Source: Staphylococcus phage AH12. Taken from it: a stretch of DNA of 64,000 bases. Numbering within the stretch: position 1 is the first letter of the stretch; each line of letters opens with the position of its first letter. The stretch lies in the sequence record OR455461.1; one strand, given 5' to 3'. Both the position numbers and the translations under genes were made by a program. Of this stretch, positions 34,611 through 62,669 are shown in pieces. The notes under the pieces were generated by a model. The model was not told the DNA's origin. It was given only the letters and a program-made list of their open reading frames with translations, and did no database searches.

Positions 34611-35309
34611 TTAAATAAATGCATTTTTAATTTTTGCTTTTCTTTCTATATCTTTGAATTCATCTTCTTCTATAAAATCAAAATTATAATTAGACATTAA
34701 TGCATAAGTTAATGTATTAAAAATAGGACTTTCCTTACAATATTTTTCTCCTAAATTACTTATCAAATATATTATAGAACAAGTGTCTTCATCATTATAA
34801 TTCTTTATATTAATTATTATTCTATCTCGTTTTCTATTTTTAGGTTTACTTAATGTAAATATATAGGTATACTTATCCCTTAAATATTTTATTTCTTTAT
34901 GAATATTTTTTATTAATAATTCAGCTTGTTCTTTTTGTTCTTTATTACTAATCATGAATTCAAAGCTCATATTTAATAATGCTCTTTCATCATTAGGATT
35001 ATAAGGTCTATTGTAATTACTTTTATATAACACTATATTTAAAAAATCTTCATTGTTATAATAATCCATATTATTATAATCATTTAAAGATTTCAGTATA
35101 TCAACTATAGTTTCTTTATTTATAAAAGTTTTTAAATAGTCTATATTCATATCACTTAATCTTACTGATTTATCAAAATTGTTAACCATGTTTGGTATTC
35201 TTAAATAAACTGGGTTATCTTTATATAAATCACATAATTGATTAAAACTTAAAGGAATTACTCTAGGACCTATTAGTTCTTTTTCTTTAATTATTCTAAT
35301 ATCAATCAC
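34611..35309 (-). CDS. Member of the paralogous 'KE.FK-tail' family (divergent)
   Basis: 232 aa. The C-terminus ...RKAKIKNAFI resembles the family tag. Confidence 0.4.
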   Translation of the reverse strand: MIDIRIIKEKELIGPRVIPLSFNQLCDLYKDNPVYLRIPNMVNNFDKSVRLSDMNIDYLKTFINKETIVDILKSLNDYNNMDYYNNEDFLNIVLYKSNYNRPYNPNDERALLNMSFEFMISNKEQKEQAELLIKNIHKEIKYLRDKYTYIFTLSKPKNRKRDRIIINIKNYNDEDTCSIIYLISNLGEKYCKESPIFNTLTYALMSNYNFDFIEEDEFKDIERKAKIKNAFI

Positions 35310-35322
35310 TTTCTTTCTATTA

Positions 35323-35985
35323 TTATATAAATAATTCTTTAGTTAATATTGAATTATATTCTTTTTTATCTATAATTTCTACAAAATTTCTATGATCCAA
35401 AAGAACTTTTATCTCATTATTGAATTTATTATAATCATCTGCATACACTGCAATATTATCCAAAATGAATTGAATGATCTTAATATAGTTTGAATAAAAT
35501 AAATTCTCTATAAATTCATCTATTTTATTTTTATCTATTAAAAATATTAATGTCAAATCTAGTACATACTCTCTATTGTAATGATCCAGAGAAACAGATT
35601 TTAAAAAATCTAGATCAATTTCATGTATACTATCTATAAATTCTTTTTGGTTTTCAATTAAATCTGTATAGCTTTTTAAACTGAAATACATATTCATTAT
35701 ATATCTATTTTTAGATGTTTTACTAATAAAGAATTCCAATTTACTATTAAAGAAATCCATATGAACTACTTTCATATTTTCTCTATTAAGAATTTCAAAT
35801 ATTTTATTAGCTATACATTTAGATGCTTTTTCCATATTATTAATTTCTTCATCAGAATTAATTAAATAAATTGATCTGTCTTTATTATCATTAAAGTCAT
35901 AGATCTTTTTATTACCGTTGGCACTTTTTTTATGATAAAATATATTTACATTTTCTTTGTTAAAACGATATAAGTAGTTAACCAT
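35323..35985 (-). CDS. Member of the paralogous family (divergent tail ...LTKELFI)
   Basis: 220-aa ORF. Confidence 0.4.
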   Translation of the reverse strand: MVNYLYRFNKENVNIFYHKKSANGNKKIYDFNDNKDRSIYLINSDEEINNMEKASKCIANKIFEILNRENMKVVHMDFFNSKLEFFISKTSKNRYIMNMYFSLKSYTDLIENQKEFIDSIHEIDLDFLKSVSLDHYNREYVLDLTLIFLIDKNKIDEFIENLFYSNYIKIIQFILDNIAVYADDYNKFNNEIKVLLDHRNFVEIIDKKEYNSILTKELFI

Positions 35986-36061
35986 AAAAGCATCTCATCC
36001 ATTTCTATATTATAATATAATAAAAAGTTACTATATTACTATGGATGAGATGTTATATAAT

Positions 36062-36904
36062 CTATTTAAAACTTTCTTTTACTGCTATCTTCTTATATTC
36101 ATCTTCTTGTACAAAAGTTATTTTTTCTTTATTTTTATTAATAATATCTTTATACGATATAGAATCTAAATTATCTAGTACTTCATCTTTAAAATATAAA
36201 GAATATAATTCGATACCTTTTTTATCTCTAAAGAAATTACAATTTAGTATTTGGTAATTATATTTTCTCATTAAAACTGATAAGAAATTATTTAATTCTT
36301 CTTTATTAGGAATTAAAAAGAATTTCATATTTTTCATTTCTTTATCATTTATACGATCTCTCCTAGATATATTGATATATGAAGTTATTGTTTTTGAAAT
36401 AACTTCATATAATTTATTTGGAGATGAATAATTATTAAAAAGATAAGGATTGATTTGCTTTCTATTTTTACCTTTTACATAATTATCTAATTTAAATTGA
36501 TACTCTTTAAATCTATTTAATATTTTTCTATTTACTTTATTAGATAAAATTAAATAATAACCTTCTTTAGTACCACGATTTTCTATATATAATATATCTA
36601 TTCTATTATCTATATCTTTTTTAACATGTCTAAATAATTTTTTATTAAATAATTGCATTACTTCATTTATATTAAAATAATTGTCACTATATCTTTCATC
36701 TTCAGGTGTAATATCATGTACAAATATTGTACCTACTTGTGGCATAAATTTTCCATCATTTTTATAATTTGAATTATAATTTACAACAGAATTGATAAAG
36801 AATTTATAAAAATTTTCATCTTCATTATTTTTATATAGCATATTGAATTTTATACTCTCATTATTCTTCTTAGTTAGTCTTTTATCTATTTTAATGATTT
36901 CCAT
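36062..36904 (-). CDS. Paralogous family protein with conserved C-terminal tag
   Basis: 280 aa. Starts MEIIKI and ends ...EDEYKKIAVKESFK. Confidence 0.5.
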   Translation of the reverse strand: MEIIKIDKRLTKKNNESIKFNMLYKNNEDENFYKFFINSVVNYNSNYKNDGKFMPQVGTIFVHDITPEDERYSDNYFNINEVMQLFNKKLFRHVKKDIDNRIDILYIENRGTKEGYYLILSNKVNRKILNRFKEYQFKLDNYVKGKNRKQINPYLFNNYSSPNKLYEVISKTITSYINISRRDRINDKEMKNMKFFLIPNKEELNNFLSVLMRKYNYQILNCNFFRDKKGIELYSLYFKDEVLDNLDSISYKDIINKNKEKITFVQEDEYKKIAVKESFK

Positions 36905-36922
36905 AATATCAATTTCCTCTCC

Positions 36923-37462
36923 TTATTTAAATGTCTCTTTTACTATAAATTTCTTGTATTCTTCTTTAGACATATCATCTATATATCCTTTATATTCATA
37001 TAAATTATAATCAGAACTATAGAAAATAACGTCTTCTTCTTCTCCATCATGTTCTGGAAGAAAATCAAAATTGTATGAAAAAACTATATACATATCTTCT
37101 TTAATATTACGTATATAACTATTAAAAATAAATTTATTCATATTTTTACTTTTTAAGAAACTAATATTTTTAGTATATTCTTCTCCATTTTCATGAACGT
37201 GAATTATATTATTTAAATGATTATCTTCAACCCATTCAGGGCTATTCTCAAATGATATGTGTTTAACTACTTCATTATTCATATTTATCAATTTAAAATT
37301 AATCAATACGTTTCCTGGTGTAGTTTCTACATTATGTTTAAATCTATAAGACATATAAGTGTCGATGATTTCCTTATTTGAAATTTCTCCTTCATCTCTT
37401 ATTAAATGAAATATGTCAAAGTGACCGTCTTGTTCTATTCTAAATTTTTTAATGATTTCCAT
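36923..37462 (-). CDS. Paralogous family protein with conserved C-terminal tag
   Basis: 179 aa. Starts MEIIKK and ends ...KEEYKKFIVKETFK. Confidence 0.5.
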   Translation of the reverse strand: MEIIKKFRIEQDGHFDIFHLIRDEGEISNKEIIDTYMSYRFKHNVETTPGNVLINFKLINMNNEVVKHISFENSPEWVEDNHLNNIIHVHENGEEYTKNISFLKSKNMNKFIFNSYIRNIKEDMYIVFSYNFDFLPEHDGEEEDVIFYSSDYNLYEYKGYIDDMSKEEYKKFIVKETFK

Positions 37463-37463
37463 T

Positions 37464-38090
37464 TTATTTAAATCCCCTTTTTATTAATTCATTTTTATAT
37501 TCTTTTTCATTAATTTTATTTATTCTAGTATTTATAATATTCATAAAATTATATAACCTCATATTATTAACTTTATACATTCTTGCATTATTTCCATTAT
37601 CATACCCAATATTATTATTTATAGGTTCGATAATTTCTTTAGAGTTACAATGTGAAATTAATTCAAATACAATATTTCTATTTTCACTTATATCGATAAT
37701 TAATTCTAGGTTTGAAAATTCTAAATCTAAATTATTAATATCCTCTTTAATTAGATTAAATATATTTTTAGAATTTTCTATATCATGGGTCAACCTATAA
37801 TAATCTCCATATACGTCTTCTCTAAATAAACCTATATTACCTTTTGATATTATATGGTATTTAAATTCTATAATATTTCTTAAACTATTCAATTCAATAG
37901 TGATTGTGTTATATTTAATTATTTTTCTCATTCTATCAGTATAAAATTCATTGAAAAATTGTTCAAATAAAATAATATTTAATTCTTGAGAATCAATACT
38001 ATCTTTATTCTGTTTATATGGTAATTTTAGTGTATCAATATTTTTAAAATTTCTTAACAAACCTCTAAAATCCAACATGAAATAATTCAT
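37464..38090 (-). CDS. Paralogous family protein with conserved C-terminal tag
   Basis: 208 aa. Ends ...EKEYKNELIKRGFK. Confidence 0.5.
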   Translation of the reverse strand: MNYFMLDFRGLLRNFKNIDTLKLPYKQNKDSIDSQELNIILFEQFFNEFYTDRMRKIIKYNTITIELNSLRNIIEFKYHIISKGNIGLFREDVYGDYYRLTHDIENSKNIFNLIKEDINNLDLEFSNLELIIDISENRNIVFELISHCNSKEIIEPINNNIGYDNGNNARMYKVNNMRLYNFMNIINTRINKINEKEYKNELIKRGFK

Positions 38091-38141
38091 CTATCATTTT
38101 CATCTCCTTCAAATAAAAAAATTAATTATAATAGAGATGAT

Positions 38142-38172
38142 ACTTTAATTAAAGTATCATCTCATATTTTAT
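38142..38172 (-). terminator. Hairpin with a T-run (minus strand)
   Basis: GAGATGATACTTTAATTAAAGTATCATCTC. On the minus strand it is followed by TATTATAATTAATTTTTTTA. Confidence 0.45.
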
Positions 38173-38486
38173 TAAATTACATTTTTATAGATAGTTTCAG
38201 GTACAAATTCTTCATCATAATCATGAATAGTTAATAATACACCTTCATGAGAATATTCTAAAGTATACATGTCATTTTCATCATTAACATTAACTACTGA
38301 ATAAGAGAAAATACTTGAATCTTGGTCTAATCCTAATTCTTCAATTAAACCTGATTCAGTTCCATAACCTTCATCTACACCTATTTCATTACTTTCTAGT
38401 ACTTCATACTCTCCGTCTACTTCGCCTCTAAGTTGTAAATCTCTTAATACTTCTTCGTTTAATTTTGTCATAATAAATTCCTCCAT
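38172..38486 (-). CDS. Small acidic protein
   Basis: 104 aa, E/D-rich, with RBS AATGGAGGAATTT upstream. Preceded by the promoter-like motif and hairpin module. Confidence 0.5.
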   Translation of the reverse strand: MEEFIMTKLNEEVLRDLQLRGEVDGEYEVLESNEIGVDEGYGTESGLIEELGLDQDSSIFSYSVVNVNDENDMYTLEYSHEGVLLTIHDYDEEFVPETIYKNVI

Positions 38487-38497
38487 TAATTTTATTA

Positions 38498-38544
38498 GAA
38501 AGATATATGATAATATCTTTCTTCATTATTATAATATATACTTA
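38498..38544 (-). promoter_or_regulatory. Promoter-like motif TAAGTATATATTATAATAATGAAG plus hairpin GAAAGATATTATCATATATCTTTC (read on the minus strand)
   Basis: The same module recurs at 48128-48176 and 48823-48870, and promoter-motif variants recur at six further sites. Confidence 0.45.
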
Positions 38545-38548
38545 ATCT

Positions 38549-38854
38549 TTATTTCGTTTCAAACTTTTCAATGCCTTTTTCTTCAATAACTACATCTGCA
38601 TTTAATACTTGTAAACGTTTACCATCTACATTAATAACAATGTAACTACCGCCTGCTTCATCACTATATTTAGTTCTGATTTTCTTTCCTTCATATTGAT
38701 GTAATACTTTACCATCTTTACTATATATAGTTACTTTTCTTTCTAGACCTGATGTATCTGATTTATGATCTTTAGTAGCATCATCAAACCATGTACAACC
38801 TGCTAACACTGTTGTTAATAATAAAACTCCAAATAACATTAAAATCTTTTTCAT
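38549..38854 (-). CDS. Putative lipoprotein
   Basis: MKKILMLFGVLLLTTVLAGCTWF has a signal peptide with the lipobox LAGC. Confidence 0.55.
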   Translation of the reverse strand: MKKILMLFGVLLLTTVLAGCTWFDDATKDHKSDTSGLERKVTIYSKDGKVLHQYEGKKIRTKYSDEAGGSYIVINVDGKRLQVLNADVVIEEKGIEKFETK

Positions 38855-38871
38855 AATTTATTTTCTCCATT

Positions 38872-39357: not shown

Positions 39358-39384
39358 CCGTTTAATCTCCTTTAATTATATTAT

Positions 39385-39717
39385 TTATACAAAACTATTT
39401 AATTCTTTCATATGATAACTTCCTAACTCTAATTTAAGATGGAAATTCTCTATCATTTTATAATTTAAACCATGTTCTTCTAATAATTCTACATTGATAG
39501 TTTCTTCATCAATTTCTAATATTTCTTTTAATGTAAATATATCTGAAGATACTACTGTTAGAGAATCTGCTAAATTATCAAGATCTTTTTCTCTAGAATC
39601 ATCTATATTATAGACGAAACTTTCTTCCATTAAATGCTTGCAATTAGATATAACAATTAAGTCTCCTACAATTTTATCATAAATTCTATCTATAACTTTT
39701 TTACTATCTTTTAACAT
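39385..39717 (-). CDS. Hypothetical protein
   Basis: 110-aa ORF. Confidence 0.45.
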   Translation of the reverse strand: MLKDSKKVIDRIYDKIVGDLIVISNCKHLMEESFVYNIDDSREKDLDNLADSLTVVSSDIFTLKEILEIDEETINVELLEEHGLNYKMIENFHLKLELGSYHMKELNSFV

Positions 39718-39788: not shown

Positions 39789-40259
39789 TTAATTTAAATA
39801 GATATTTTTATTGTAACTATCCTTACCTAATTTATTACTTATATTAATATCAAATATTAAATCTCCAGTTACAGATTTATCTTTACTATTAATACTTTTT
39901 ACTAACATCATTGTAATTGAATTATTGTAAGTTAAAGTTTCTATAGTTGTATATATTTTAATATCTTTACTTATATCATCTTTTTTAATATTCCTTACTA
40001 ATTTTAAATCTCCATTGTCTATTAAAGTACCCACTTCTGTATCTAATAGTTCAATAATGCAATCAATAAAATCTTCTGCTTTATGAAACAGATTGTGTTT
40101 TTCATTAAGAATATAAGTTCTATTTGGTTTAACTTCAGTTTCTTTATTAATTGTATTTAATGATTTGTATATGAAATTATTAATATAATTTTGTGTAACT
40201 TCAACTGGTAATTTTAAATTATTATTTATTAATTTGTCTATATTCTTTTTATTCTTCAT
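39789..40259 (-). CDS. Hypothetical protein
   Basis: 156-aa ORF. Confidence 0.45.
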   Translation of the reverse strand: MKNKKNIDKLINNNLKLPVEVTQNYINNFIYKSLNTINKETEVKPNRTYILNEKHNLFHKAEDFIDCIIELLDTEVGTLIDNGDLKLVRNIKKDDISKDIKIYTTIETLTYNNSITMMLVKSINSKDKSVTGDLIFDINISNKLGKDSYNKNIYLN

Positions 40260-40711
40260 TATACAAAATTATCCTTTACTAAATTATTTTTATACTCTTT
40301 CTCTGTTATATCTTTTAAATTAAAATCCATTGAATTATGATATTCTTCATTGAGATTATTTTTAATAATTAATAGTACTTTGTCTATTATTTTTATTAAT
40401 CCTTCTTCATCTTCTGGAATAAGTATCGTATCATCATAATATTGTTCATATTCAAATTCATTTTTTAATTTACTTATAATTAAATTATTATCATCTTTAA
40501 CTATTAAACCATCATCTTCTTCACCATAAAAGAAAAATATAGTATTTTCAGATAAATTTTCGATACCAAAAGATATTTCACTGGATAGTTTTAATCCAAA
40601 ACTATTCACCTTAAATATTTCACTTTTTATTAATTCATCAAAGACTATTTCTTTACTTTTACCTTGAAAATAACATTCTTTTCCTCTTAAAATTGTTTTA
40701 AAGTATTCCAT
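40259..40711 (-). CDS. Paralogous family protein with conserved C-terminal tag
   Basis: 150 aa. Ends ...EKEYKNNLVKDNFV. Confidence 0.45.
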   Translation of the reverse strand: MEYFKTILRGKECYFQGKSKEIVFDELIKSEIFKVNSFGLKLSSEISFGIENLSENTIFFFYGEEDDGLIVKDDNNLIISKLKNEFEYEQYYDDTILIPEDEEGLIKIIDKVLLIIKNNLNEEYHNSMDFNLKDITEKEYKNNLVKDNFV

Positions 40712-40723
40712 ATTGAGATCTCC

Positions 40724-41188
40724 TTAAATTTCATTAATAATATTAGCTAAATATTCATTGTGATTTAATTCTATACGTCTAGATTCATCTACATTATTTT
40801 CTATATCATCTATAAAGCTATCGAAAAGATTATCAAGTAATTCAATAAATTTCTCATCAGAACCTCTTTCTTTATATCTATTTAGATAAATTTCTTTGTC
40901 AGATCGTTTAGGATAAACCACTACAAATTCTAAACCACTATCATTTAATCCTTGAATAACTTCTTTATGAGTAGATACAAAGATATAATCCATTACATTC
41001 TTAAAGTATAAGTCTCTAATGTAAGTTAAATAATTCTTTGGAAATCTAGGATCTCTAACTTTTTCTCCATCTTTTACTAACCATGAGAAGCTAGTTGAAT
41101 CTGAATCGGATGTTCTTAAGAATGTGATATTATTTTTAATATAAGATTTACCTGTACCTGGAAATGCTGCGATTATTTTAGTATTCAT
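40724..41188 (-). CDS. P-loop NTPase or nucleotide kinase-like protein
   Basis: An N-terminal Walker A motif IIAAFPGTGKSY in a 154-aa protein. Confidence 0.45.
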   Translation of the reverse strand: MNTKIIAAFPGTGKSYIKNNITFLRTSDSDSTSFSWLVKDGEKVRDPRFPKNYLTYIRDLYFKNVMDYIFVSTHKEVIQGLNDSGLEFVVVYPKRSDKEIYLNRYKERGSDEKFIELLDNLFDSFIDDIENNVDESRRIELNHNEYLANIINEI

Positions 41189-41799
41189 TTTTTAATTTCT
41201 CCTTTAATATTTAAGTTAAAGTAATCCTGAAATTCTTTTATATTATTATCAATTTCTTTATATTCTCTTGATTCTAATTTACTACTTTCATATTTGAGAA
41301 ATTCTCCATAAGTAAGTAATCTATTAGTATCAATACTGTTCTTCCAATGTTTTCTTTTCTTTCTTTCTTCAAGTTTTACTATTTTAGTAGCATCTATAAA
41401 TGATTCTCCTAGTAAAATTCCTGTTAAGTTTTTTATATTATAATACTCTATATACCAGTTTTTTTCATTTTTAAAATTATTAAAAGCTTCTTTAAAAATC
41501 TCATTATTCCCATTTAATTCAATATACCATAGAGAATAATATTTACCCTTAATTTTATATGATTGATTTAAAGCTCTATATTCTTTCATAATATTATTAT
41601 TAAAGAATATTATAGAGATAATTATCATTGGTATAAATATTAATAAAGATAATAATGCTAATTTAGTATTAATTGACGATATAAAAATAAATAATGTTAT
41701 CAGTACTGAAAATAAAATTGCATTAAATAAAAAAGGAAATATTGTTGAATTTCCATTTTTATAGATGCACCAATCAAATAGGTTTATTTTATTTTTCAT
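41185..41799 (-). CDS. Membrane protein, tandem paralogue 3 of 3
   Basis: 204 aa. NLFDWCIYKNG, then TM segments, then conserved ALNQSYKIKGKYYSLWYI and NRLLTYGEFLKYE. Confidence 0.5.
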   Translation of the reverse strand: MKNKINLFDWCIYKNGNSTIFPFLFNAILFSVLITLFIFISSINTKLALLSLLIFIPMIIISIIFFNNNIMKEYRALNQSYKIKGKYYSLWYIELNGNNEIFKEAFNNFKNEKNWYIEYYNIKNLTGILLGESFIDATKIVKLEERKKRKHWKNSIDTNRLLTYGEFLKYESSKLESREYKEIDNNIKEFQDYFNLNIKGEIKK

Positions 41800-41806: not shown

Positions 41807-42424
41807 TCATTCCCCTTTAGTGTTTAAATTATAGTAATCTTGAAATTCTTTTATTTCTCGTTCCATATCATTTAATTTTTCAATTTTAAGTTTATTCTTT
41901 TTATATTTAAGGAATTCTCTATAAGTGAGTAATCTATTAGTATCAATATTGTTCTTCCAATGTTCTCTATTTTCTCTGACTGCATATTCCACTATTTTAG
42001 TATCTTTTATAAAGAATCCTTCTAGTAAAATTCCTGATAAGTTTTTTATATTATGATCCTCTATATACCAGTTTTTTTCATTTTTAAAATTATTAAAAGC
42101 TTCTTTAAATAACTCATTATTTTCATTTAAACTAATATACCATAGAGAATAATATTTACCTTTGATTTTATATGATTGATTTAAAGCTGTATATTCTTCC
42201 GAATTTTCATCATTTATACACTTAATCATTTTACGTGATATTATAAATATTATTAAAGATATTAAAGGTGAAAATAGAATTACACTTATATTAAAACTAA
42301 ATATAGAAATTATAGGTATAACTATTGCTAAAGATGTTAATAAAATATCTAAGTATTCGACTATTTTGAAAATCTCATTTCTTGTATATAAATTCCAATC
42401 AAATCTATTTACTGTATTTTTCAT
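41807..42424 (-). CDS. Membrane protein, tandem paralogue 2 of 3
   Basis: 205 aa. NRFDWNLY...ALNQSYKIKGKYYSLWYI...NRLLTYREFLKYKKNKL. Confidence 0.5.
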   Translation of the reverse strand: MKNTVNRFDWNLYTRNEIFKIVEYLDILLTSLAIVIPIISIFSFNISVILFSPLISLIIFIISRKMIKCINDENSEEYTALNQSYKIKGKYYSLWYISLNENNELFKEAFNNFKNEKNWYIEDHNIKNLSGILLEGFFIKDTKIVEYAVRENREHWKNNIDTNRLLTYREFLKYKKNKLKIEKLNDMEREIKEFQDYYNLNTKGE

Positions 42425-42974
42425 TTAGTGTATCACCTCTTATTTTTAAATTAAGATGTTCTTTAAATTCTTTTATATACTTATCCAACTTAATATTTTC
42501 TTCTAATTTTAACATATTCTTTCTATATTTAATAAATTCTCTATAAGTTAGTAATCTATTTTTACCTGTATTATTTTTCCAGTTATATCTATCCAATTCC
42601 CTTAAATTAAATTTACTAATATTGAAAATAATTTTATTCAATTCGTGAAGTTCTTTTTCAGTTTCAATAACTCCTGTCATGTTAAAAAACCATCTAGAGT
42701 AATAATTTCCTTTTATTTCATAAGAAAAATTTATAAATTTGTATTCTGACATAATCTCATCATTAAAATATTTCAAGTATATAAATGTAGAAATTATTAA
42801 TATAGGGATAAAAATTGATAAAGATAATAAAAATAGATTGATACTATATAGTAAAGATAAAAAGGATATTAAAATTGACAAAATAAATATTGATGTGAAA
42901 CATCTGAAGGGGATTATTGCATCTTTACCTTTTCTATAAATATGCCAATCAAATAGATTCACTGTTTTTCTCAT
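42405..42974 (-). CDS. Membrane protein, tandem paralogue 1 of 3 (start at the internal Met)
   Basis: MRKTVNLFDWHIYRKG, then TM segments, then NRLLTYREFIKYRKNML. The longer 42405..43019 ORF overlaps the upstream gene. Confidence 0.45.
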   Translation of the reverse strand: MRKTVNLFDWHIYRKGKDAIIPFRCFTSIFILSILISFLSLLYSINLFLLSLSIFIPILIISTFIYLKYFNDEIMSEYKFINFSYEIKGNYYSRWFFNMTGVIETEKELHELNKIIFNISKFNLRELDRYNWKNNTGKNRLLTYREFIKYRKNMLKLEENIKLDKYIKEFKEHLNLKIRGDTLNEKYSK

Positions 42975-42981
42975 TTTATTA

Positions 42982-43176
42982 TCACTCACCTTTCTTTTTT
43001 CTATAAAATGTTCTTCCATGCATTGTTTCGTAGTATTTAATAATATTAGTAATGCATCCCCTACTCACATTAAATCTTTTTGCAAATTGATCTAATGTTT
43101 TCCAATTATTATGAACTATATATTGCATTATTTCTTTTCTTTCTTTAGGTGTGAATTTATAATTTCTTCCAGACAT
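42982..43176 (-). CDS. Small HTH DNA-binding protein
   Basis: 64 aa. TLDQFAKRFNVSRGCITNIIKY is helix-turn-helix-like. Confidence 0.4.
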   Translation of the reverse strand: MSGRNYKFTPKERKEIMQYIVHNNWKTLDQFAKRFNVSRGCITNIIKYYETMHGRTFYRKKKGE

Positions 43177-45366: not shown

Positions 45367-45798
45367 TTATTCTTCTTCAAATAATTCTGGGTCTGTTTCT
45401 GGAGTGATTTCTCTTGAAGTGCTTCCTGGTTCACCTGGTGATTTAACTTCACCTTCTGCTGCTAACTCTTCTTCACGACCATTAGCTGAATATACTGGCT
45501 CTTCTGTTGTTTCATTTTGTTGAACTTCATTACTAGTGTCTACATTGTTATTTTCTTCTACATTGTTATTTGTAGTTTGTTGATTATTTTCATTTGTAAC
45601 TTGTTGTTGAGATTCTGTATTTTGCTGTTGTTCTTTTTCTTTCTTATTCTCTTTTTCCTTTTTAACTTCTTTTTGTTCAGTTTGTAATTTTTGTTTTTCT
45701 AATTGTAAATCCTTATAACTTGTATATGCGAATAAAGCTACTACGAATAATGCTGCTACTAATACAATTGCACCTAAACTTATTAATAATTTTTTCAT
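45367..45798 (-). CDS. N-terminally anchored or secreted low-complexity protein, tandem paralogue
   Basis: MKKLLISLGAIVLVAALFVVALFAYTSYKDL, then a Q/N/E/T-rich low-complexity body. Confidence 0.5.
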   Translation of the reverse strand: MKKLLISLGAIVLVAALFVVALFAYTSYKDLQLEKQKLQTEQKEVKKEKENKKEKEQQQNTESQQQVTNENNQQTTNNNVEENNNVDTSNEVQQNETTEEPVYSANGREEELAAEGEVKSPGEPGSTSREITPETDPELFEEE

Positions 45799-45825: not shown

Positions 45826-46299
45826 TTAGTTTGCCCATTCTTTAATGATGTCTGGGTTATTGTTTACTTCTTCTCTGATACTATCTACATATTCATTACC
45901 ACGTTGTGCTTCTACTTTCCCTTCAGTAATAGCTCTGTCGTTTTCATCCATGTAAGTCATATAGTATTCCATTAATTCTTCATCACTCATAGTACCAATA
46001 TCTGTATTAACTTCATTACTAGTGTCTACATTATTATTTTCTTCTTGACTTGGAGTTTCTTCTTGACTTGGAGTTTCTTCTTGAGCTACTTGTTCTTGAT
46101 CGTTATTTGTTTGTGTGTTACTTACTGTTTCTTGATTTTTACTTTCTTCAGAATCTTTTTGATTATTTTCTTGAGATACTTTATTTTGCTCTTCTTGAGT
46201 TTCATTTAGATCTTTATATACTGAATAACCAAATAATACTGTTGCTCCCAATACTGCTAATAATACTAATACACCTAATACACCTAATAATTTTTTCAT
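45826..46299 (-). CDS. N-terminally anchored or secreted low-complexity protein, tandem paralogue
   Basis: MKKLLGVLGVLVLLAVLGATVLFGYSVYKDL, then a Q/E/S/N-rich body. Confidence 0.5.
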   Translation of the reverse strand: MKKLLGVLGVLVLLAVLGATVLFGYSVYKDLNETQEEQNKVSQENNQKDSEESKNQETVSNTQTNNDQEQVAQEETPSQEETPSQEENNNVDTSNEVNTDIGTMSDEELMEYYMTYMDENDRAITEGKVEAQRGNEYVDSIREEVNNNPDIIKEWAN

Positions 46300-46337: not shown

Positions 46338-46946
46338 TTAAATACCTTCGCCTGGTTCTGGAATTTCTCCTCTTGATGCTTTTTCATACATCTCTTTTTG
46401 CTTTTCATATTCTTCATCCATGTCTTCTTCTTCATCACCACTATGTTTTTCTTCTTCGCTTAATTCATATTTTTTATGGTTTTCAGGGTTTGCCATCTCA
46501 GGTGAAATTGGTTGGAACTTACCTTCTTCAGTTAATCTATTTAACTCTGGAGTCATTTCATCTGTTGTAGCAATTCCATCTCCATTTTTATCAGCCTTAC
46601 GAATTGCTTCACTTACGATTTCAACGTCATCTTCTTTTGGTTGATCAACGTTATCACTGTTATCTACTTCTTGAGTATCTTCAACGCTAATATTATCCTC
46701 TGTTGAATCTGAACTTTGTTCTGTTTCTAAAGATTGATTCTCTTCGTTGTTTACTTCATTGTTTACTTCGTTGTTTACTTCCTTTTTATTTTTATTAGGT
46801 TTTTCTTTAACTTCTTGTTTTTGTTCTGTTTTTAATTCTTTATCGTTACTTTTTATATTCTTATATTGACTGTATCCAAATAAAACTGTTACACCTAATA
46901 CTGCTAATAATACTATTACACCTAATACACCTAATAATTTTTTCAT
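46338..46946 (-). CDS. N-terminally anchored or secreted low-complexity protein, tandem paralogue
   Basis: MKKLLGVLGVIVLLAVLGVTVLFGYSQYKNI, with (VNNE)n repeats and an acidic C-terminus. Confidence 0.5.
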   Translation of the reverse strand: MKKLLGVLGVIVLLAVLGVTVLFGYSQYKNIKSNDKELKTEQKQEVKEKPNKNKKEVNNEVNNEVNNEENQSLETEQSSDSTEDNISVEDTQEVDNSDNVDQPKEDDVEIVSEAIRKADKNGDGIATTDEMTPELNRLTEEGKFQPISPEMANPENHKKYELSEEEKHSGDEEEDMDEEYEKQKEMYEKASRGEIPEPGEGI

Positions 46947-47158: not shown

Positions 47159-47356
47159 TTATTTCCAAAAATTTCCTTTTCTAATTTCTCCTACTGTATA
47201 ATTAATTAATAATGATATTGCTGCTAGTACTAATCCAAGTGCTAAAGATTTTCCTTCTACGTATCCAATCATTTCTCCTATGATAAAACCAAGTATAAGA
47301 GTAAACCAAAATAATATCCATGGCTTTAGTTTCAATAATCTTTTTTCTTCATTCAT
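47159..47356 (-). CDS. Small membrane protein
   Basis: 65 aa with two hydrophobic segments. Confidence 0.4.
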   Translation of the reverse strand: MNEEKRLLKLKPWILFWFTLILGFIIGEMIGYVEGKSLALGLVLAAISLLINYTVGEIRKGNFWK

Positions 47357-47592
47357 TATCTAAACACATCTCCTTTATCATTATTCACTCTAATATAATA
47401 CACTTTATTACTTTCTTGGATTTTAGATTTTCTTTCATCTCCAATTACATAATTAATTGCTATAGTAATTAATGGTGTTAACATAGAAATTGTAGCTCCT
47501 ACAAAGAAATCATTTGACATTAAACCAATAGTTGAACCTAATATCATACCTACAACTAACGCCCATTCAGTTTTTAATCTTAAAATTTTCAT
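47356..47592 (-). CDS. Small membrane protein
   Basis: 78 aa with two hydrophobic segments. Overlapping stop and start with the downstream gene. Confidence 0.4.
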   Translation of the reverse strand: MKILRLKTEWALVVGMILGSTIGLMSNDFFVGATISMLTPLITIAINYVIGDERKSKIQESNKVYYIRVNNDKGDVFR

Positions 47593-47613: not shown

Positions 47614-47937
47614 TTATTGAATTACTAATTCTTCTTCTTTCCATAGATTATGCTCTTCTTTACCTTGGAAAGATTGATGTAATCTTCCAGCTTTAGAATA
47701 ATCACTTTTACTTTTATACTCTTTAATTTTATTCTTTTTGACATTTCTCAGATATCTTTCTGATCTAATGTCAAATCTTAATTTGTCTATTTGTTTCATT
47801 AAATTTAATTTCTTTTCAAAATCTTTATTTGAAATTGTTTTGCCATTAGACCTGATTTCTTTGTCTCGTATCACTTGTAATTCTTTTTTTAGTTGTTTAA
47901 TTTTTTCTTCTCTCACCATTTTAATTACACCCCCCAT
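47614..47937 (-). CDS. Small basic protein, paralogue of 48214..48522
   Basis: Shares DYSKAGRLHQSFQGKEEH with DEFSKAGRLHRKYQKQEKH, plus a coiled-coil N-terminus. Confidence 0.45.
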   Translation of the reverse strand: MGGVIKMVREEKIKQLKKELQVIRDKEIRSNGKTISNKDFEKKLNLMKQIDKLRFDIRSERYLRNVKKNKIKEYKSKSDYSKAGRLHQSFQGKEEHNLWKEEELVIQ

Positions 47938-48213
47938 TTTCTTAATCCGAAAGCTGTAGTATCAAAGCTCTCAATCATTGAATCTATTTCTCTATAAGCC
48001 TGTTCTGATGGATATCTTACTTCATCATAGTAATTGATTAAATCCTCTTCGTTAATTTTAGTTTCCTTTTCAAATTCAATTCCATTTAATAATTCTAACA
48101 TAATAATTTCTCCTTTTAATTTTATTAGAAAGAGATTATGATAATCTCTTTCTTCATTATTATAATATATACTTATTTTAATATACGTTACGCTTTTTCA
48201 AATTCAATTGATT

Positions 48214-48522
48214 CTATGAATTATTGAATATTCTGTGTTTCTCTTGTTTCTGATATTTTCTATGAAGTCTACCTGCTTTAGAAAATTCATCTGAACCTTT
48301 GTAGATATTATCTTCATAATTTTGATCTTTAACTTTCGCTATATGTTTTTCTCTATCGAAGATGTTTTGTTCCTGTTCTACTAGTTCATTAATTTCTTTA
48401 ATTAGTCTTTCTTTTTCTTTGTAAAGTCTTTCTGTTATAGTGCTTGTTCTACTTACTCCCATATCAGAATATATGTTTTTTAATTCTTTTCTTAATTCTG
48501 CTAATTTAGTTTTGTTATTCAT
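48214..48522 (-). CDS. Small basic protein, paralogue of 47614..47937
   Basis: 102 aa containing the SKAGRLH motif. Confidence 0.45.
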   Translation of the reverse strand: MNNKTKLAELRKELKNIYSDMGVSRTSTITERLYKEKERLIKEINELVEQEQNIFDREKHIAKVKDQNYEDNIYKGSDEFSKAGRLHRKYQKQEKHRIFNNS

Positions 48523-48881
48523 TGATTTTAGCTCCTTTTTATTGTTGGATCATAGAAAATTATAGACTTAATGAACTTGATACATTATATTCATTAAGTC
48601 TTTAAAACAATTATCCTCTTTCCTCCTCTATCCTAAATTAGAAAACGGATGTCCAAACTTTATTTCTGAAGCTCTTTTAAGAACTTGTTTTTCCATTTCC
48701 TTTTCCATGATTAATTCGTCAATTTTATTGTTTAATATACCTAATACAATCCCTACTCCAAATCCTACTAATGTTTTTAATACTAATTTTTTCATAATAA
48801 TTTCTCCTTTAATTTTTATTAGAAAGATATTAATATTCTATCTTTCTTCATTATTATAATATATACTTATTTTAGTATACA

Positions 48882-56120: not shown

Positions 56121-56123
56121 AAC

Positions 56124-57746: not shown

Positions 57747-57907
57747 TTATCCGACACTCTCCCTCTTGGTAATAAAAACTTTATAAGATATGAGTTATTT
57801 CTGGTTTTTATTTTTTTACAAAATGAAAACTCATAACAATATTATATCATAAAACTTAGAAAAATGCTAGGAAAATAATACTATTTTTCTAAAAATTTTA
57901 AAAATAA

Positions 57908-58240: not shown

Positions 58241-58290
58241 AAATAATTCAAAAGCCATAATATACTTATTTGTATATTATGGCAATTTTA

Positions 58291-58569
58291 TTATTCATTT
58301 TCATTAATGTCTTCTTTAGTTTCTTTTCTTTTAATAGTTAAATTAAGTACTTTTCTGAAAAATTTAATTTTAAGATTTAATAAGAAATTACTATCTGATT
58401 TAATCTTAACATCAAACTTCTGCTCTTTATCTTCTTCAGTTTCAGGTAAAGTAACAAATTCAAAGTCTACTCTTTCTAAGTCTTCTCTAGATAATAATTC
58501 TTTCTTTTGACTTTCATTAAGTTTTAACCCTAATCTTTTTTCTAATTTCTTTTGATTTCTTTTATTCAT
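58291..58569 (-). CDS. Small K/E-rich protein
   Basis: 92-aa ORF. Confidence 0.4.
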   Translation of the reverse strand: MNKRNQKKLEKRLGLKLNESQKKELLSREDLERVDFEFVTLPETEEDKEQKFDVKIKSDSNFLLNLKIKFFRKVLNLTIKRKETKEDINENE

Positions 58570-58598
58570 ATTAATAAGTCATCTCCATATTATAATTA

Positions 58599-58982
58599 TT
58601 AATCTTTATAGTCTGGTTTAGCTGGAATCCACATCTTAGGATTATAATTAATTTCATATTGATATTTGCTAACATTCTTAGTTGTAACGTCTTCAACAGT
58701 ATATGAAACATTATCAGATAGACCAATGATGTGTTTTTGATATTTACCATTTTCATTTTCTACAACTATTTCCAACTGATTATCATCTTTATCTGCTTTG
58801 ATAGACATACGTCCAGACATCTGAAAAATAATATCATTCTTAATAGCATTTATAACAGTTACTTTTCTAACTACATTAAAATTATCTGACTCTTCAGACA
58901 TATTCTGACTAACCTTATCTGCTTGAGAACACCCTGTTAATAATAAAACGAATAATAATGGTAGTACTAAAAATTTCTTCAT
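58599..58982 (-). CDS. Putative lipoprotein
   Basis: MKKFLVLPLLFVLLLTGCSQ has a signal peptide with the lipobox LTGC. Confidence 0.55.
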   Translation of the reverse strand: MKKFLVLPLLFVLLLTGCSQADKVSQNMSEESDNFNVVRKVTVINAIKNDIIFQMSGRMSIKADKDDNQLEIVVENENGKYQKHIIGLSDNVSYTVEDVTTKNVSKYQYEINYNPKMWIPAKPDYKD

Positions 58983-59016
58983 GATTGTTTTCTCCTTTGA
59001 TTGTCTTAATATATTA

Positions 59017-59070
59017 GAGGTAATGACAAATTGTATGTCATTACCTCATTTTTATAATATATATTTAAAT
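59017..59070 (-). promoter_or_regulatory. Promoter-like motif TTTAAATATATATTATAAA plus a GAGGTAATGACA...TGTCATTACCTC hairpin upstream of the lipoprotein gene
   Basis: Same motif-hairpin-RBS architecture as at 51833-51890. Confidence 0.4.
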
Positions 59071-59286
59071 AATATCTTCCTCATAATTAGGAATAATTAA
59101 TTCTTGTTCTAATAAATTATCTAACTTACTTTTTTCTAATACAAATCCATTACCATCTTTATCTGAATATAAAAGTAATTCAGATTCACCATCAATAAAG
59201 TTTTTTAAACCTCTACGGTGTAAAAAGAATTTTCTTTCGTTCTTCTTATATTCAAATGAGAATGGTATTTTTCCTTCTTCCATCAT
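59065..59286 (-). CDS. Small hypothetical protein
   Basis: 73-aa ORF. Confidence 0.4.
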   Translation of the reverse strand: MMEEGKIPFSFEYKKNERKFFLHRRGLKNFIDGESELLLYSDKDGNGFVLEKSKLDNLLEQELIIPNYEEDII

Positions 59287-59576
59287 GCTACAACATCTCC
59301 ATCTTTAGTTTCAACATTCTTTGAATTTAATTCAATACTAAAATTCTTAATATGATTCAAGTGATTTAATTTTAATTTACTTCTAAAACTTTCCTTATCA
59401 ATACTTTCGATATTATAAGTATTCAATATCATTTGCATTGTAGTAAAGTTTTCTGAATCATATATTTCTAATAACGTAATCTCCAATTTATTAATAGCTT
59501 CTTCAAACGTATCAAACGTAAATGATTCAACTATTCTTCTATTGAATTTTAATTTAAATCCATATACTCTTTTCAT
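59283..59576 (-). CDS. Hypothetical protein
   Basis: 97-aa ORF overlapping the downstream start by 4 nt. Confidence 0.4.
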   Translation of the reverse strand: MKRVYGFKLKFNRRIVESFTFDTFEEAINKLEITLLEIYDSENFTTMQMILNTYNIESIDKESFRSKLKLNHLNHIKNFSIELNSKNVETKDGDVVA

Positions 59577-59596
59577 TTAAATTCTCTCCTTTCTAT

Positions 59597-60247
59597 TTAA
59601 CTAAATAAAGAATTTATAAATATAGATCTATATTCTTTAATTGTAATTTCTTTATTATAATTGAAGAATATATTTTTAGACTGCTTTAAAGTTAAAAAGA
59701 ATTCAGCTAATGTTAATGCTTTAAGATATTGCTTTTCATTGTCTCTATTTTGTTTAAATAAATTAATGAATATATCTTCAATTCCTATTTCTTTAAAATT
59801 GTCTATATAGAATTCTTCTTTAATATCCTTCTCTACATATGGTACTTTAGTTATTGTAAAATATGAATTATTAGTTTTAACTAAATTATTTGAATCTAAT
59901 AAATCATCTATTTCTGGTTCAGTAAGACTATTAATTTCTTTAAAATCTCTGAAATTATTTACTTTTTTAATATTCTCTTTTATTAAATTTAATGTCTGAT
60001 GATTTACTATTTTACTATAAAAATTCATAGTAGTTCTTTCATTTGAGAATATATTTTCCTCCAATATTAAAGAATAACTAGCATTATTAATCATTAAAGC
60101 ATTACTATTTTCTGTAATATCCAATTGCTTTTCAATTTGTTCCATTATATCTTTATCGTAATCTATAAGTAGAACAATTGTGTTTAAATTCTTTTTATAC
60201 GTATTCCTAGATCTTTTTTGAAAATTAATTAAGTACATTATAACCAA
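59597..60247 (-). CDS. Hypothetical protein
   Basis: 216-aa ORF. Confidence 0.45.
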   Translation of the reverse strand: MVIMYLINFQKRSRNTYKKNLNTIVLLIDYDKDIMEQIEKQLDITENSNALMINNASYSLILEENIFSNERTTMNFYSKIVNHQTLNLIKENIKKVNNFRDFKEINSLTEPEIDDLLDSNNLVKTNNSYFTITKVPYVEKDIKEEFYIDNFKEIGIEDIFINLFKQNRDNEKQYLKALTLAEFFLTLKQSKNIFFNYNKEITIKEYRSIFINSLFS

Positions 60248-60310
60248 CTATATCACCACACTTATATATTAATGAATTTATAATAATTACACGTTAGTTT
60301 CATTCATTAA

Positions 60311-60715
60311 TTATTTAAATGAATTCGTTATAATTAAATTTTTAAATTGCTTTTCAGTTAATATATCTTTTAAATATCGATGGATAGTTTCTTTAAAATC
60401 ATATATTATATAATTATCATTTTCTTTTATTAAAGCACATAAATTATCACTACCATTATTATATTTCTTCAATATTTTATTTATAGTATAGTAGTCAATC
60501 TTATTATTTTCAAATATTATTGATGATAAAGCTGGTTTAATAATCACTTCATAAAAATTACTAAATGATTTTGTATAAGATTCTACATCATCTTTATCAT
60601 CAATGTGACTGAAAAATATTTGTCTTATTACAGGATAAGTATATGATCTCAATACATTATACTTAATTATTTGACTTGACAATTCATCATAATCAAATTT
60701 ATTTAATTTTTTCAT
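60311..60715 (-). CDS. Paralogous family protein (tail ...KNLIITNSFK)
   Basis: 134 aa. The C-terminus resembles the family tag. Confidence 0.45.
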   Translation of the reverse strand: MKKLNKFDYDELSSQIIKYNVLRSYTYPVIRQIFFSHIDDKDDVESYTKSFSNFYEVIIKPALSSIIFENNKIDYYTINKILKKYNNGSDNLCALIKENDNYIIYDFKETIHRYLKDILTEKQFKNLIITNSFK

Positions 60716-60811
60716 TATCTAACACCTCCTCATATAATAAATATATTTAAGACAACGTATATATTTAGTATACATTTTCTCATTTTAATAATATATATTT
60801 AAATCATATTT

Positions 60812-61213
60812 TTATTTAAATGTATTTTTTATTTTATTATTCATATATTCTTTTCTTGTGACTTCAGTATAATAATTTTCATCAGATATATCAAAATCCA
60901 TTTCAGATACAGTTCTAATAAATATATGATGTATATCATCTAAATCTTTCTTTTTACTTCTTTTTATTTTTACTTCAAGTCCTTGATAACTATTATATTT
61001 TATCTTAATATTTAATAATACAGCTAAACCCTTTCTTATTTTACCTATAGAAATAGTATTATAAAAATCAAAATGAGTTAGTATATCCATTATAGATAAA
61101 TTTTCATCTTCACTAAAATAAATATTATATCTATTAAAATCTGATAAGTTTACACGTTCTTCTATATTAAGATTTTTTACTATCCCTATAGGTGTTAATT
61201 TATAATATTTCAT
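60812..61213 (-). CDS. Paralogous family protein with conserved N- and C-terminal tags
   Basis: Starts MKYYKLTPIGIVKNL and ends ...RKEYMNNKIKNTFK. Confidence 0.5.
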   Translation of the reverse strand: MKYYKLTPIGIVKNLNIEERVNLSDFNRYNIYFSEDENLSIMDILTHFDFYNTISIGKIRKGLAVLLNIKIKYNSYQGLEVKIKRSKKKDLDDIHHIFIRTVSEMDFDISDENYYTEVTRKEYMNNKIKNTFK

Positions 61214-61226
61214 ATCAATTCCTTAT

Positions 61227-61658
61227 TTATATTATTGATTTATAGAAATCTAAATCTTCAGATAATAAATTTTTTATTGCTTTTGTTACATACGTTTGTT
61301 TATCGTATATTTTATACTCACCATCAATTTTAACTAAAGCAAATAAATCACTAGCAAAATCTGGTTCTAGTAAGATGGAAACCATCTTTTTGTTTAAAAC
61401 ACTTTCTTCATAATGATCTTCGAAGATAATGTCCGATATTGAAGGTAGTATAATTTCTTCATAATAATCTTTTATGTCATCCATTTCATTATAAGCTTCT
61501 TCTGTTCCAATATCATAATCGTCACTAAAAAATAATTCTCTTAGAACTAAATAACTATTTGACTTTAATTCTTTAGGAACACTCACCATATTTTCTTGTG
61601 TAATTTTTATTGAATCTTTTAGACTGTCTGAATCAAATAAATTGAAAAACTCATCCAT
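61227..61658 (-). CDS. Acidic hypothetical protein
   Basis: 143-aa ORF. Confidence 0.45.
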   Translation of the reverse strand: MDEFFNLFDSDSLKDSIKITQENMVSVPKELKSNSYLVLRELFFSDDYDIGTEEAYNEMDDIKDYYEEIILPSISDIIFEDHYEESVLNKKMVSILLEPDFASDLFALVKIDGEYKIYDKQTYVTKAIKNLLSEDLDFYKSII

Positions 61659-61675
61659 TTTATATCTACTCCTTT

Positions 61676-62149
61676 TTATTTAAAATTTTCTTTAATTTTA
61701 TTATTTCTATATTCTTTTTCAGTTATTTTTATATAATCTTCATTAATTATTAATCCCATTTTATTAATACCTTCTGCATTGAATGTGAATTTATCGTTAT
61801 ACCCATGATTTCTTATATTATCATATATTTCATTCAAAGTTTCTTCACCAGTTAAATGCATACTATCTTCCCATATTTCATAACCTTTAAGATCAATCCA
61901 GTAATTCACGTACGTGTTTTCTTCTTCATCTCTTAAAAAATTAGTTTCTATTTTTATAGGAAAATCTTTAATTAAATCAATTAATATAATTTCTTCATCT
62001 TCTTTTACATATAAAGATTCTAATAATTCAATATCTTTACCGTCTTTTTTCTTAATATACCAATTTCTTTCCATTAATTGAGAATAAATATCAGGATTAA
62101 TAAATAAAATTTTAGATATTCCACTTTGAGTTATTTTGTAATAATTCAT
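61676..62149 (-). CDS. Paralogous family protein with conserved N- and C-terminal tags
   Basis: Starts MNYYKITQSGISKIL and ends ...EKEYRNNKIKENFK. Confidence 0.5.
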   Translation of the reverse strand: MNYYKITQSGISKILFINPDIYSQLMERNWYIKKKDGKDIELLESLYVKEDEEIILIDLIKDFPIKIETNFLRDEEENTYVNYWIDLKGYEIWEDSMHLTGEETLNEIYDNIRNHGYNDKFTFNAEGINKMGLIINEDYIKITEKEYRNNKIKENFK

Positions 62150-62171
62150 GCTATATATATATACTCCTTTT

Positions 62172-62669
62172 TTATTTAAAAGTTTCTTTAACTTTATTCT
62201 CTTTATATTCAGTTTCAGATATTTCTATATATTGGATATTCTCTTTTAAATCATAAATTTCTTTATCTCTGCTAAAAATAAAATCTTTATTAAAAACTAA
62301 ATCTTCTGCATATTCATGAACCTCCTCAAGCGTATGGTTTTTAAAATTATCTAAAATAATACCTACACTATTCGTCAAATATCCGCCTTTCATTTCTAAA
62401 TGAGCATCCATAGTTAAGGGTCTATTTGAATTTGTAAAGACGGTGAAATTAAGCTTTAAGCTATCTTGATCTTTAATCAAGTAACGTGTTTTAATGACTT
62501 CATTTTCTTCAAAACAAAAATTTTGTTTAAGATTATCATAACCACCACCATAAGTTTCTAAAATTTGAACTACACCATCATTTATTAATTTATAATATTT
62601 CATTTTATAATATCTCTCCTTTTTATTTATATAAAAAATATAGATAACGGTCTTAAAGACCGTTATCAT
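62172..62669 (-). CDS. Paralogous family protein with conserved N- and C-terminal tags
   Basis: Internal Met MKYYKLINDGVVQIL. Ends ...ETEYKENKVKETFK. Confidence 0.5.
   Translation of the reverse strand: MITVFKTVIYIFYINKKERYYKMKYYKLINDGVVQILETYGGGYDNLKQNFCFEENEVIKTRYLIKDQDSLKLNFTVFTNSNRPLTMDAHLEMKGGYLTNSVGIILDNFKNHTLEEVHEYAEDLVFNKDFIFSRDKEIYDLKENIQYIEISETEYKENKVKETFK

Follow-up and report, generated by a model that had tools for sequence, protein, structure and literature searches.

A shared C-terminal module on dissimilar proteins encoded in tandem gene arrays of AR9-like Staphylococcus jumbo phages

We analysed a 64,000-nucleotide stretch of the genome of Staphylococcus phage AH12 (OR455461.1), hereafter the window, in which two clusters of open reading frames (ORFs), all on the minus strand, encode proteins that share a C-terminal tail of about 20 residues (Table 1). 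The window has a GC content of 23% and belongs to a Staphylococcus AR9-like (uracil-DNA type) jumbo phage that is 95.6% identical to vB_StaM_PB50 (PB50) and 94.9% identical to Machias over the 7 kb compared, and about 73% identical to S6, PALS_2, DC4, MarsHill, Madawaska, and LY01. Its relatives are AR9/PBS1-like jumbo phages that, according to annotation, have split multisubunit virion and non-virion RNA polymerases (bioRxiv 10.1101/2020.12.14.422802). Our genome-wide census covered the complete PB50 and S6 genomes, and AR9, LPJP1, and SA1 were sampled as 41-kb regions around the ligase.

The tail is a genuine and hitherto undescribed module, and the literature that we searched held no mention of its motif. 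Eleven ORFs in the window carry it, ending in phi-x-E-[IV]-[ST]-E-K-E-[YI]-K-x-x-x-[IV]-K-x-x-F-K-COOH. The strict core of this motif, [IV][KR]xxF[KR], was found 12 times among the 18,940 positions of the window's 85 ORFs, and in six of these cases it formed the last six residues of the protein, when 0.054 would be expected (binomial p = 7e-12). A looser regular expression, applied to all stop-to-stop tails of the window, gave 12 matches, 10 of which were the candidates, compared with a mean of 1.4 and a maximum of 6 in codon-shuffled controls. The longer motif E[YF]x3-x-[IVAT][KTN]xxF appeared nine times in the six-frame translation, every time ending one residue before the stop codon. The similarity of the termini, which the original prediction had allowed might be compositional, is thus more than composition, as indicated by the strict-core probability and by the shuffles. 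All seven tails quoted at that time were recovered at the ORFs to which they had been assigned, and the estimate of at least 10 members in two clusters was borne out, with one of the 11 tagged ORFs (59597-60247) lying outside the range first proposed.

Across 87 distinct tails, the consensus was phi-phi-E-E-I-[T/D]-E-K-E-[Y/I]-K-[K/N]-[Y]-[L/K]-[V/I]-K-[E/N/K]-[N/G/T/S]-F-[K/R]. Counting back from the C-terminus, phenylalanine occupied position -2 in 85 tails (98%) and valine or isoleucine position -6 in 80 (92%), and position -4 was divided among E (29), N (23), K (16), and D (9). The tail has a basic-hydrophobic character, with an isoelectric point (pI) of 9.4. Loss of the stop codon would typically add only four codons, yet the phenylalanine stays at its place in nearly all tails.

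In the census, the strict core ended 22 ORFs in PB50 and 22 in S6 (0.12-0.14 expected), and of its 33 occurrences in the PB50 proteome 22 were C-terminal. The relaxed core ended 39 of 300 PB50 ORFs and 45 of 286 S6 ORFs, with about three expected. Family size was about 36-42 genes per genome, or 12-15% of ORFs, and the tagged proteins were 68-632 amino acids (aa) long. The genes lie in at least seven same-strand tandem arrays, which in PB50 are located at 0.5-1.8, 70-76, 96-100, 105-109, 137-140, 243-254, and 259-265 kb; the array at 243-254 kb adjoins genes annotated as virion-associated and portal. Tags were most alike inside one tandem array. The window's clusters correspond to the second and third PB50 arrays, so that both clusters described in the original prediction are real and form merely the local share of a genome-wide family.

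An excess of phenylalanine at -2 extends beyond the recognised family in the PB50 and S6 proteomes, with window examples at 39385-39717, 33794-34420, and 47356-47592. In PB50, 64 of the 300 ORFs have this residue, 26 of them outside the relaxed motif, where about 13 would be expected. Given this excess, the family or its minimal determinant may be wider than counted here.

Synonymous variation and conservative substitution both indicate that conservation of the tail acts on the protein. When the last 12 codons of 36 PB50 members were laid out, the valine or isoleucine at -6 was encoded by seven codons (GTA, GTT, GTC, GTG, ATT, ATA, and ATC), and the information content of this codon was 0.34 bits at the third position versus 1.04 at the first and 1.69 at the second. 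Substitutions among the 87 tails were conservative in protein terms (I/V, K/R, and Y/F/I), and DNA 3' of the stop codon in the 36 members showed no conservation except the Shine-Dalgarno sequence of the ribosome-binding site (RBS). An artefact of DNA or composition could have been expected from a genome whose low GC content makes K, N, E, F, and I common, whose genes are so tightly packed that an RBS follows straight after the stop, and in which cluster 2 exchanges whole-gene cassettes; the tail would then stem from a promoter, terminator, or RBS that overlaps the gene end, from a linker that serves recombination during cassette exchange, or from codon usage biased towards A and T. We dropped the DNA-level versions of this explanation because of the synonymous variation and the unconserved flanks, and with the 12 matches against 1.4 in shuffles and the scarcity of the hexapeptide elsewhere in the proteome, we regard an artefact of either kind as extremely improbable.

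The bodies of different subfamilies have no detectable similarity. After removal of the last 22 residues, 83 tagged proteins fell into 43 BLAST clusters, mainly orthologue pairs, and when 42 tail-less body clusters were compared profile against profile, E < 1e-3 was reached by only 5 of 861 pairs, all of them inside one array. At E < 0.05 there was a slight enrichment, with 8.6% of tagged-tagged pairs versus 2.2% of tagged-versus-untagged controls. With tails retained, 33 of 365 hhalign pairs were significant, and all 33 alignments reached both C-termini, over a median of 19 columns. End-to-end alignment was confined to the subfamily beginning with MKYYK (60812, 61676, and 62172; probability 98%). 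The "unrelated middles" of the original prediction therefore hold between subfamilies and fail within this one. ORF 36923-37462, for example, was tied to many other arrays by its last 19-51 residues only, and ORF 37464-38090 matched ORF 61676 over the last ~70 aa (blastp E = 0.003).

Recurrent N-termini had also been proposed. MEIIK is common to just two adjacent genes, and a looser Y[YF] within the first 16 residues is enriched genome-wide, occurring in 17 of 36 tagged versus 13 of 198 untagged PB50 proteins (p = 1e-8) and in 19 of 39 versus 10 of 186 in S6 (p down to 3e-10 across tests). About half of the members start with a Y[YF]K strand or hairpin. Public assemblies also contain mini-variants of MKYYK proteins, P0019 (91 aa) and P0020 (37 aa, MNYYKLTQRGISLFEGTDYEEVSKKEYKENRVKENFK), that keep both termini with the middle deleted and are either deletion remnants or minimal functional units.

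Comparison of the window with PB50 showed the tagged ORFs to be real genes on which purifying selection is somewhat relaxed. Their ratio of nonsynonymous to synonymous polymorphism (pN/pS) ranged from 0.08 to 0.66, with a median of 0.32 versus 0.18 for untagged genes (p = 0.036). It was below 1 in all 10 pairs, and positive selection acting on whole genes was not seen. Tagged orthologues of PB50 and S6 were 73% identical in the last 16 residues and 57% in the body, compared with 69% and 71%, respectively, in untagged orthologues. Cluster 1 and its PB50 counterpart are collinear. Within cluster 2, positions 60867-61670 of the window, comprising two genes, have no nucleotide match in PB50 (PB50 locus 97737-98140), and PB50 carries two additional MKYYK genes (98635-99087 and 99627-100076) between flanks that are 90-92% identical. 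Whole genes thus turn over between genomes that are 90-95% identical. ORF 60812-61213 has no nucleotide match in PB50, indicating cassette replacement.

Relatives outside the phage clade were not found in Pfam, PHROG, PDB, or BFVD, and none of the 35 members scanned matched Pfam-A or PHROGs v4 above threshold. An MKYYK profile run against 1.84e9 representatives, word-indexed searches of 5.8e9 proteins, and tblastn returned clade members only. The 632-aa and 414-aa tagged proteins were recovered only from nine Staphylococcus jumbo phages, and ORF 40259-40711 had only three close homologues among the 5.8e9 proteins. The 41-kb ligase regions of AR9 and LPJP1 contained no tagged ORF, and that of SA1 contained several. 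A degenerate DNA pattern for VKENFK followed by a stop gave 15 chance matches in IMG/VR and no tag-rich contig.

The tail has the same I-x-x-Y-L-V-K-x-[G/N]-F spacing as the "YLxxxG[FY]" helix ends of the first LisH helix (GID8 "MNYLVTEGFK") and of a RecX repeat. LisH requires a second helix, whereas the tagged phage proteins end at this point. Homology to LisH (Pfam PF08513) was rejected because a PDB profile search gave E ~1 and the protein stops after the first helix, and homology to RecX_HTH1 because the only Pfam match, of one tail, scored 14.8 bits (E = 0.028), below the cut-off of 26. The likeness is best explained by an identical way of capping the helix and not by homology.

We modelled the protein of ORF 61676 with AlphaFold2 (AF2) from an MKYYK alignment of 12 sequences, obtaining an alpha/beta fold with a predicted local distance difference test score (pLDDT) of 80.8 and a predicted template modelling score (pTM) of 0.71. 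The model has an N-terminal strand at residues 3-7 and, at the other end, a strand at 139-142 followed by a helix at 144-156; pLDDT was 93 for residues 141-150 and 57 for the last seven. A Foldseek search of BFVD with this model gave three matches, all MKYYK relatives, with the other tagged subfamilies not among them. From its N-terminal side, the module reads as a short strand (phi-x-E-[IV]) and a helix of 12 residues that is rich in lysine, N-capped by [ST]-x-x-E, and hydrophobic at -11, -8/-7, and -6, after which the chain closes with an [N/G]-F-[K/R]-COOH cap. In our reading of the sequence, [ST]xxE would be a helix N-capping box and [N/G]-aromatic a Schellman-type C-cap. Calculated from the position table, hydrophobic residues lie on two helix faces, one formed by -11, -8, and -7 and the second by -6 and -2. 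Treated as a helix, the tail is strongly hydrophilic, with a mean hydrophobicity of -0.25 to -0.73. A membrane-targeting amphipathic C-terminal helix of the MinD/FtsA type was rejected, given a hydrophobic moment of 0.06-0.17, when the FtsA targeting helix reaches 0.57.

The early promoters annotated in AR9 have the sequence A[AG][AG]TATATATTAT. Exact matches to A[AG][AGT]TATATATTAT lie on the minus strand of the window at 38543, 39784, 44363, 48174, 48868, 49855, 51885, 59066, and 60800, and on the plus strand at 14788 and 17039. PB50 contains 33 of these 13-mers, in line with the 29 promoters reported for MarsHill (bioRxiv 10.1101/2020.12.14.422802). Within 5 kb downstream of a same-strand AR9-type promoter lie 32 of 38 tagged PB50 genes versus 123 of 262 untagged ones (p = 9e-6), and we infer that the tagged genes are probably expressed early in infection. 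In a shallow mass spectrometry set of DC4 virions (15 proteins, 26 peptides), none of the 15 proteins was tagged (PMC10638138 Table 3). Two small, basic proteins of that set, UFVDC4_00019 and UFVDC4_00153, were considered as candidates and map to untagged genes.

Table 1. Tagged genes, one paralogue that has lost the tag, and early promoters at the two clusters of the window.
Feature	Coordinates	Strand	Tail or promoter sequence	Support and remarks
232-aa member, divergent tag	34611..35309	-	..EFKDIERKAKIKNAFI (..KIKNAFI)	tail module 34611-34673; helix one turn longer
220-aa member, N-terminus MVNYLYRF	35323..35985	-	..IIDKKEYNSILTKELFI	tail hidden Markov model (HMM) E 5.5e-7
280-aa member, N-terminus MEIIK	36062..36904	-	..FVQEDEYKKIAVKESFK	strict core at C-terminus; no Pfam/PHROG match
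179-aa member, N-terminus MEIIK	36923..37462	-	..DMSKEEYKKFIVKETFK	strict-core statistics, tail HMM
208-aa member, N-terminus MNYFM	37464..38090	-	..KINEKEYKNELIKRGFK	strict-core statistics, tail HMM
AR9-type early promoter with leader hairpin	38531..38543	-	AAGTATATATTAT	identical to consensus of annotated AR9 early promoters
150-aa member, N-terminus MEYFK	40259..40711	-	..KDITEKEYKNNLVKDNFV	tail HMM E 2e-9; operon behind early promoter 44363
216-aa member, outside the range first proposed	59597..60247	-	..EITIKEYRSIFINSLFS (quoted also as ..KEYRSIFINSLFS)	tail HMM E 2e-7
134-aa member	60311..60715	-	..DILTEKQFKNLIITNSFK	first gene behind early promoter 60800
AR9-type early promoter, inside cluster 2	60788..60800	-	AAATATATATTAT	leader hairpin dG -9, z -2.4
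133-aa MKYYK-subfamily member	60812..61213	-	..EVTRKEYMNNKIKNTFK	hhalign to other MKYYK members: probability 98%, 131 columns
143-aa paralogue of 60311-60715, tag lost	61227..61658	-	..LSEDLDFYKSII	blastp 7e-10, 35% over 131 aa; absent from PB50
157-aa MKYYK-subfamily member (MNYYK..)	61676..62149	-	..KITEKEYRNNKIKENFK	protein used for structure model
143-aa MKYYK-subfamily member	62172..62603	-	..EISETEYKENKVKETFK	homologues begin at internal MKYYK; longest ORF extends to 62669

Behind the promoter at 38531-38543, whose leader hairpin has a folding free energy (dG) of -10.3 and a z-score of -2.3, the genes follow in the order 38172-38486, 37464, 36923, 36062, 35323, and 34611. The divergent tag of the last of these recurs in its orthologues, which end in ..KIKNAFI in PB50 and ..KVKNTFI in S6, with a pN/pS of 0.35. 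The S6 orthologues of 35323-35985 and 59597-60247 end in ..KEYKKIMTKEMFI and ..YYRSIFINSLFN, respectively. The start chosen for 62172-62603 is supported by the homologue P0004 (143 aa, MKYYKLINDG).

Immediately downstream of cluster 1, positions 33794-34420 on the minus strand encode a 208-aa protein dominated by D, E, and S, which could be a DNA mimic or polyanion; the serine-rich antisense ORF at the same place is a low-complexity artefact. A second, unrelated gene expansion consists of three tandem paralogues on the minus strand (41185-41799, 41807-42424, and 42405-43019; blastp 1e-63 to 1e-25), which near the N-terminus have a hydrophobic stretch that probably spans the membrane. Further paralogues with MKK-hydrophobic N-termini lie at 45367-45798, 45826-46299, 46338-46946, 38549-38854, and 58599-58982 on the minus strand. 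Two of these paralogues of the early region have a lipobox-like LAGC or LTGC, and as judged from their sequences, the MKK-hydrophobic paralogues may be phage-encoded lipoproteins or membrane proteins.

The promoters themselves have a recurrent context. A stable leader hairpin lay within ~10 nucleotides (nt) downstream of the promoter in all five cases folded (dG -9 to -18.6 kcal/mol, z -2.3 to -6.6), and thus the early transcripts folded would start with a 5' stem-loop. Several copies of a near-identical ~85-nt element, which combines a promoter, a hairpin, and an RBS, precede different small genes; they lie at 38460-38545, 48106-48174, and ~48800-48868 in the window and at 83532-83618, 84872-84958, and 126211-126316 in PB50. 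The paralogue pair 47614-47937 and 48214-48522 on the minus strand (~105 aa, 32% identity, E = 2e-8) has a promoter-leader copy in front of each gene.

We favor, with moderate confidence, the view that these genes form a clade-specific early multigene superfamily in which a conserved terminal clasp or docking helix is carried on diversifying bodies. The family would have grown via tandem duplication followed by divergence, and the two termini of each protein would meet and close the fold. With their distance from the free C-terminus fixed, the near-invariant residues at -6 and -2 and the lysines beside them would then give a single partner, from the host or the phage, a common handle on all members, and the variable bodies would engage differing targets in host takeover or counter-defence. 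The selection on the protein, the dissimilar bodies, the purifying selection, and the gene turnover together keep live the earlier suggestion of a shared docking signal or a diversifying repertoire, of which the packaging and clipping variants are not supported. Given that tags are alike within an array, that the N-terminal motif co-occurs with the tag, and that the three families searched have no homologue beyond the clade, the tagged proteins are no less likely to descend from a single expanding family than to carry a portable tag.

Several observations weigh against this view. Paralogy can be demonstrated within arrays, but bodies cannot be aligned between them, and therefore a single ancestor is not demonstrable; the early timing is a prediction from a promoter motif; and a usable structure model was obtained for one subfamily only, that of ORF 40259 being unusable at a pLDDT of 48. 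The capping box and the Schellman-type ending could by themselves, via helix stability, account for F(-2) and N/G(-3). Moreover, the tag end has been lost in some orthologues (Madawaska_266 and MarsHill_261) and at 61227-61658 in the window, so that the tag is dispensable for some members.

A purely structural role is possible, and we give it less credence than the docking-helix superfamily. The strand and capped helix would together with the N-terminal strand be the folding nucleus of one ancient, fast-diverging small alpha/beta family, with no common binding. Its caps are generic, "YLxxxG[FY]" being found also in the LisH helix and in RecX, and AF2 puts the module within the domain at high confidence. 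The same account fits the closer similarity of tags within an array, the co-occurrence of the N-terminal motif with the tag, and the restriction of the MKYYK, 632-aa, and 414-aa families to the clade. However, the same tail ends proteins of 68 to 632 aa, some of which have no N-terminal motif, and the Foldseek relatives in BFVD were MKYYK proteins only. Packing against divergent bodies should bring co-variation, whereas F(-2) and V/I(-6) are nearly invariant. The exact distance to the C-terminus is also kept even though short read-through extensions easily arise, and the last seven residues have low model confidence. The tail might also be a portable signal for sorting or packaging into the prohead, the virion, or another phage-built site, perhaps clipped by the prohead protease, as the original prediction had considered. 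A strictly C-terminal tail on ~12% of the proteome with dissimilar bodies would suit such a signal, for which T4 internal proteins are a precedent (PMC3012670), and one PB50 array (243-254 kb) abuts virion-associated and portal genes. Nevertheless, we consider packaging improbable: the genes stand in operons behind AR9-type early promoters, the shallow DC4 virion set held no tagged protein, and tags track arrays in a way that resembles vertical descent over tag transfer. There was also no untagged AR9 or LPJP1 orthologue of a tagged protein that would show tag gain. Clipping fares no better, given that glutamate at -4 is found in only 29 of the 87 tails, and (I/V)-K-E is thus not a conserved feature and the L/I-x-E rule does not hold at this site. 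The upstream [IV]-[ST]-[ED] is conserved; it doubles as the helix N-cap and is indistinguishable from a cleavage site.

C-terminal motifs read by ClpX include the ssrA and MuA (RRKKAI) types, and a C-terminal degron or timer, read by a host AAA+ protease (ClpXP or ClpCP) or a phage protease and clearing early proteins later, would be in keeping with the extreme C-terminal position at a fixed distance from the carboxylate, the confinement to predicted early genes, and the basic-hydrophobic tail. We judge this very unlikely, as the tail has no sequence match to known Clp degrons (LAA-type or RRKKAI-type) and a structured module of 20 residues far exceeds what a degron needs. A bolder form of the docking idea, which we consider doubtful, is that the tail acts as a linear trans-acting address label, with one receptor reading V-6, F-2, and the lysines of ~40 early proteins and thereby concentrating them at one site or machine. 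A host hub protein might serve as this receptor, or else a structure built by the phage, e.g., a replication or transcription factory.

Among known systems, the capsid targeting sequence (CTS) of T4 invites comparison. It lies at the N-terminus, has about 10 residues, and is cut off after (L/I)-x-E by the prohead protease; its bearers are virion components. The module described here is, in contrast, C-terminal in every member and about 20 residues long, with an unconserved cleavage rule and early-looking genes. The tagged family is thus outside the T4 CTS class, given the other terminus, the lack of a conserved cleavage site, and the early-looking genes. What the two have in common is a diverse, fast-evolving accessory set that shares just a short terminal sequence; the T4 internal proteins are diverse defence-countering proteins with only the targeting sequence in common (PMC3012670). 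Tagged proteins were not seen among the 15 proteins of the shallow DC4 virion set.

The poxvirus ankyrin/PRANC families and the multigene families (MGF) of African swine fever virus (ASFV) likewise consist of tandem, lineage-specific, diverging paralogues whose copy number varies among close strains. In the ankyrin/PRANC proteins, a conserved C-terminal module docks on one host hub and the variable body selects the target. Our family has no sequence or fold relationship to these; its module is a single short helix and not an F-box-like domain, and its host is a bacterium. It does have the marks of a viral tandem multigene family, namely same-strand paralogue arrays (at least seven, PB50 and S6), restriction to a lineage, and whole-gene insertions and deletions relative to PB50. 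The LPXTG and PEP-CTERM sorting signals share the signature by which the module was discovered, one strictly C-terminal motif on many otherwise unrelated proteins. Signals of this type combine a hydrophobic transmembrane segment with an N-terminal signal peptide and a dedicated sorting enzyme, whereas the phage tail is strongly hydrophilic, and we know of no sorting enzyme for it.

The module gathers into one class about 40 ORFans per genome, all annotated as "hypothetical", which make up one in eight ORFs of a 270-kb phage, and it offers a single cheap handle on them in the form of a 20-residue peptide. Were the tail an address label, it would be the first peptide signal defined as targeting cytoplasmic proteins in a phage-infected bacterium, and it would be transferable to reporters. 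Should the tail dock on a shared partner, this partner would lead to the central target that the uracil-DNA jumbo phages of Staphylococcus, a group with therapeutic interest, address in early host takeover, and cargo could be delivered to this target with the tail as a portable tag. A tail with a structural role only would still make the family a clear example, in a bacterial virus, of the accordion-like multigene families that large eukaryotic DNA viruses have.

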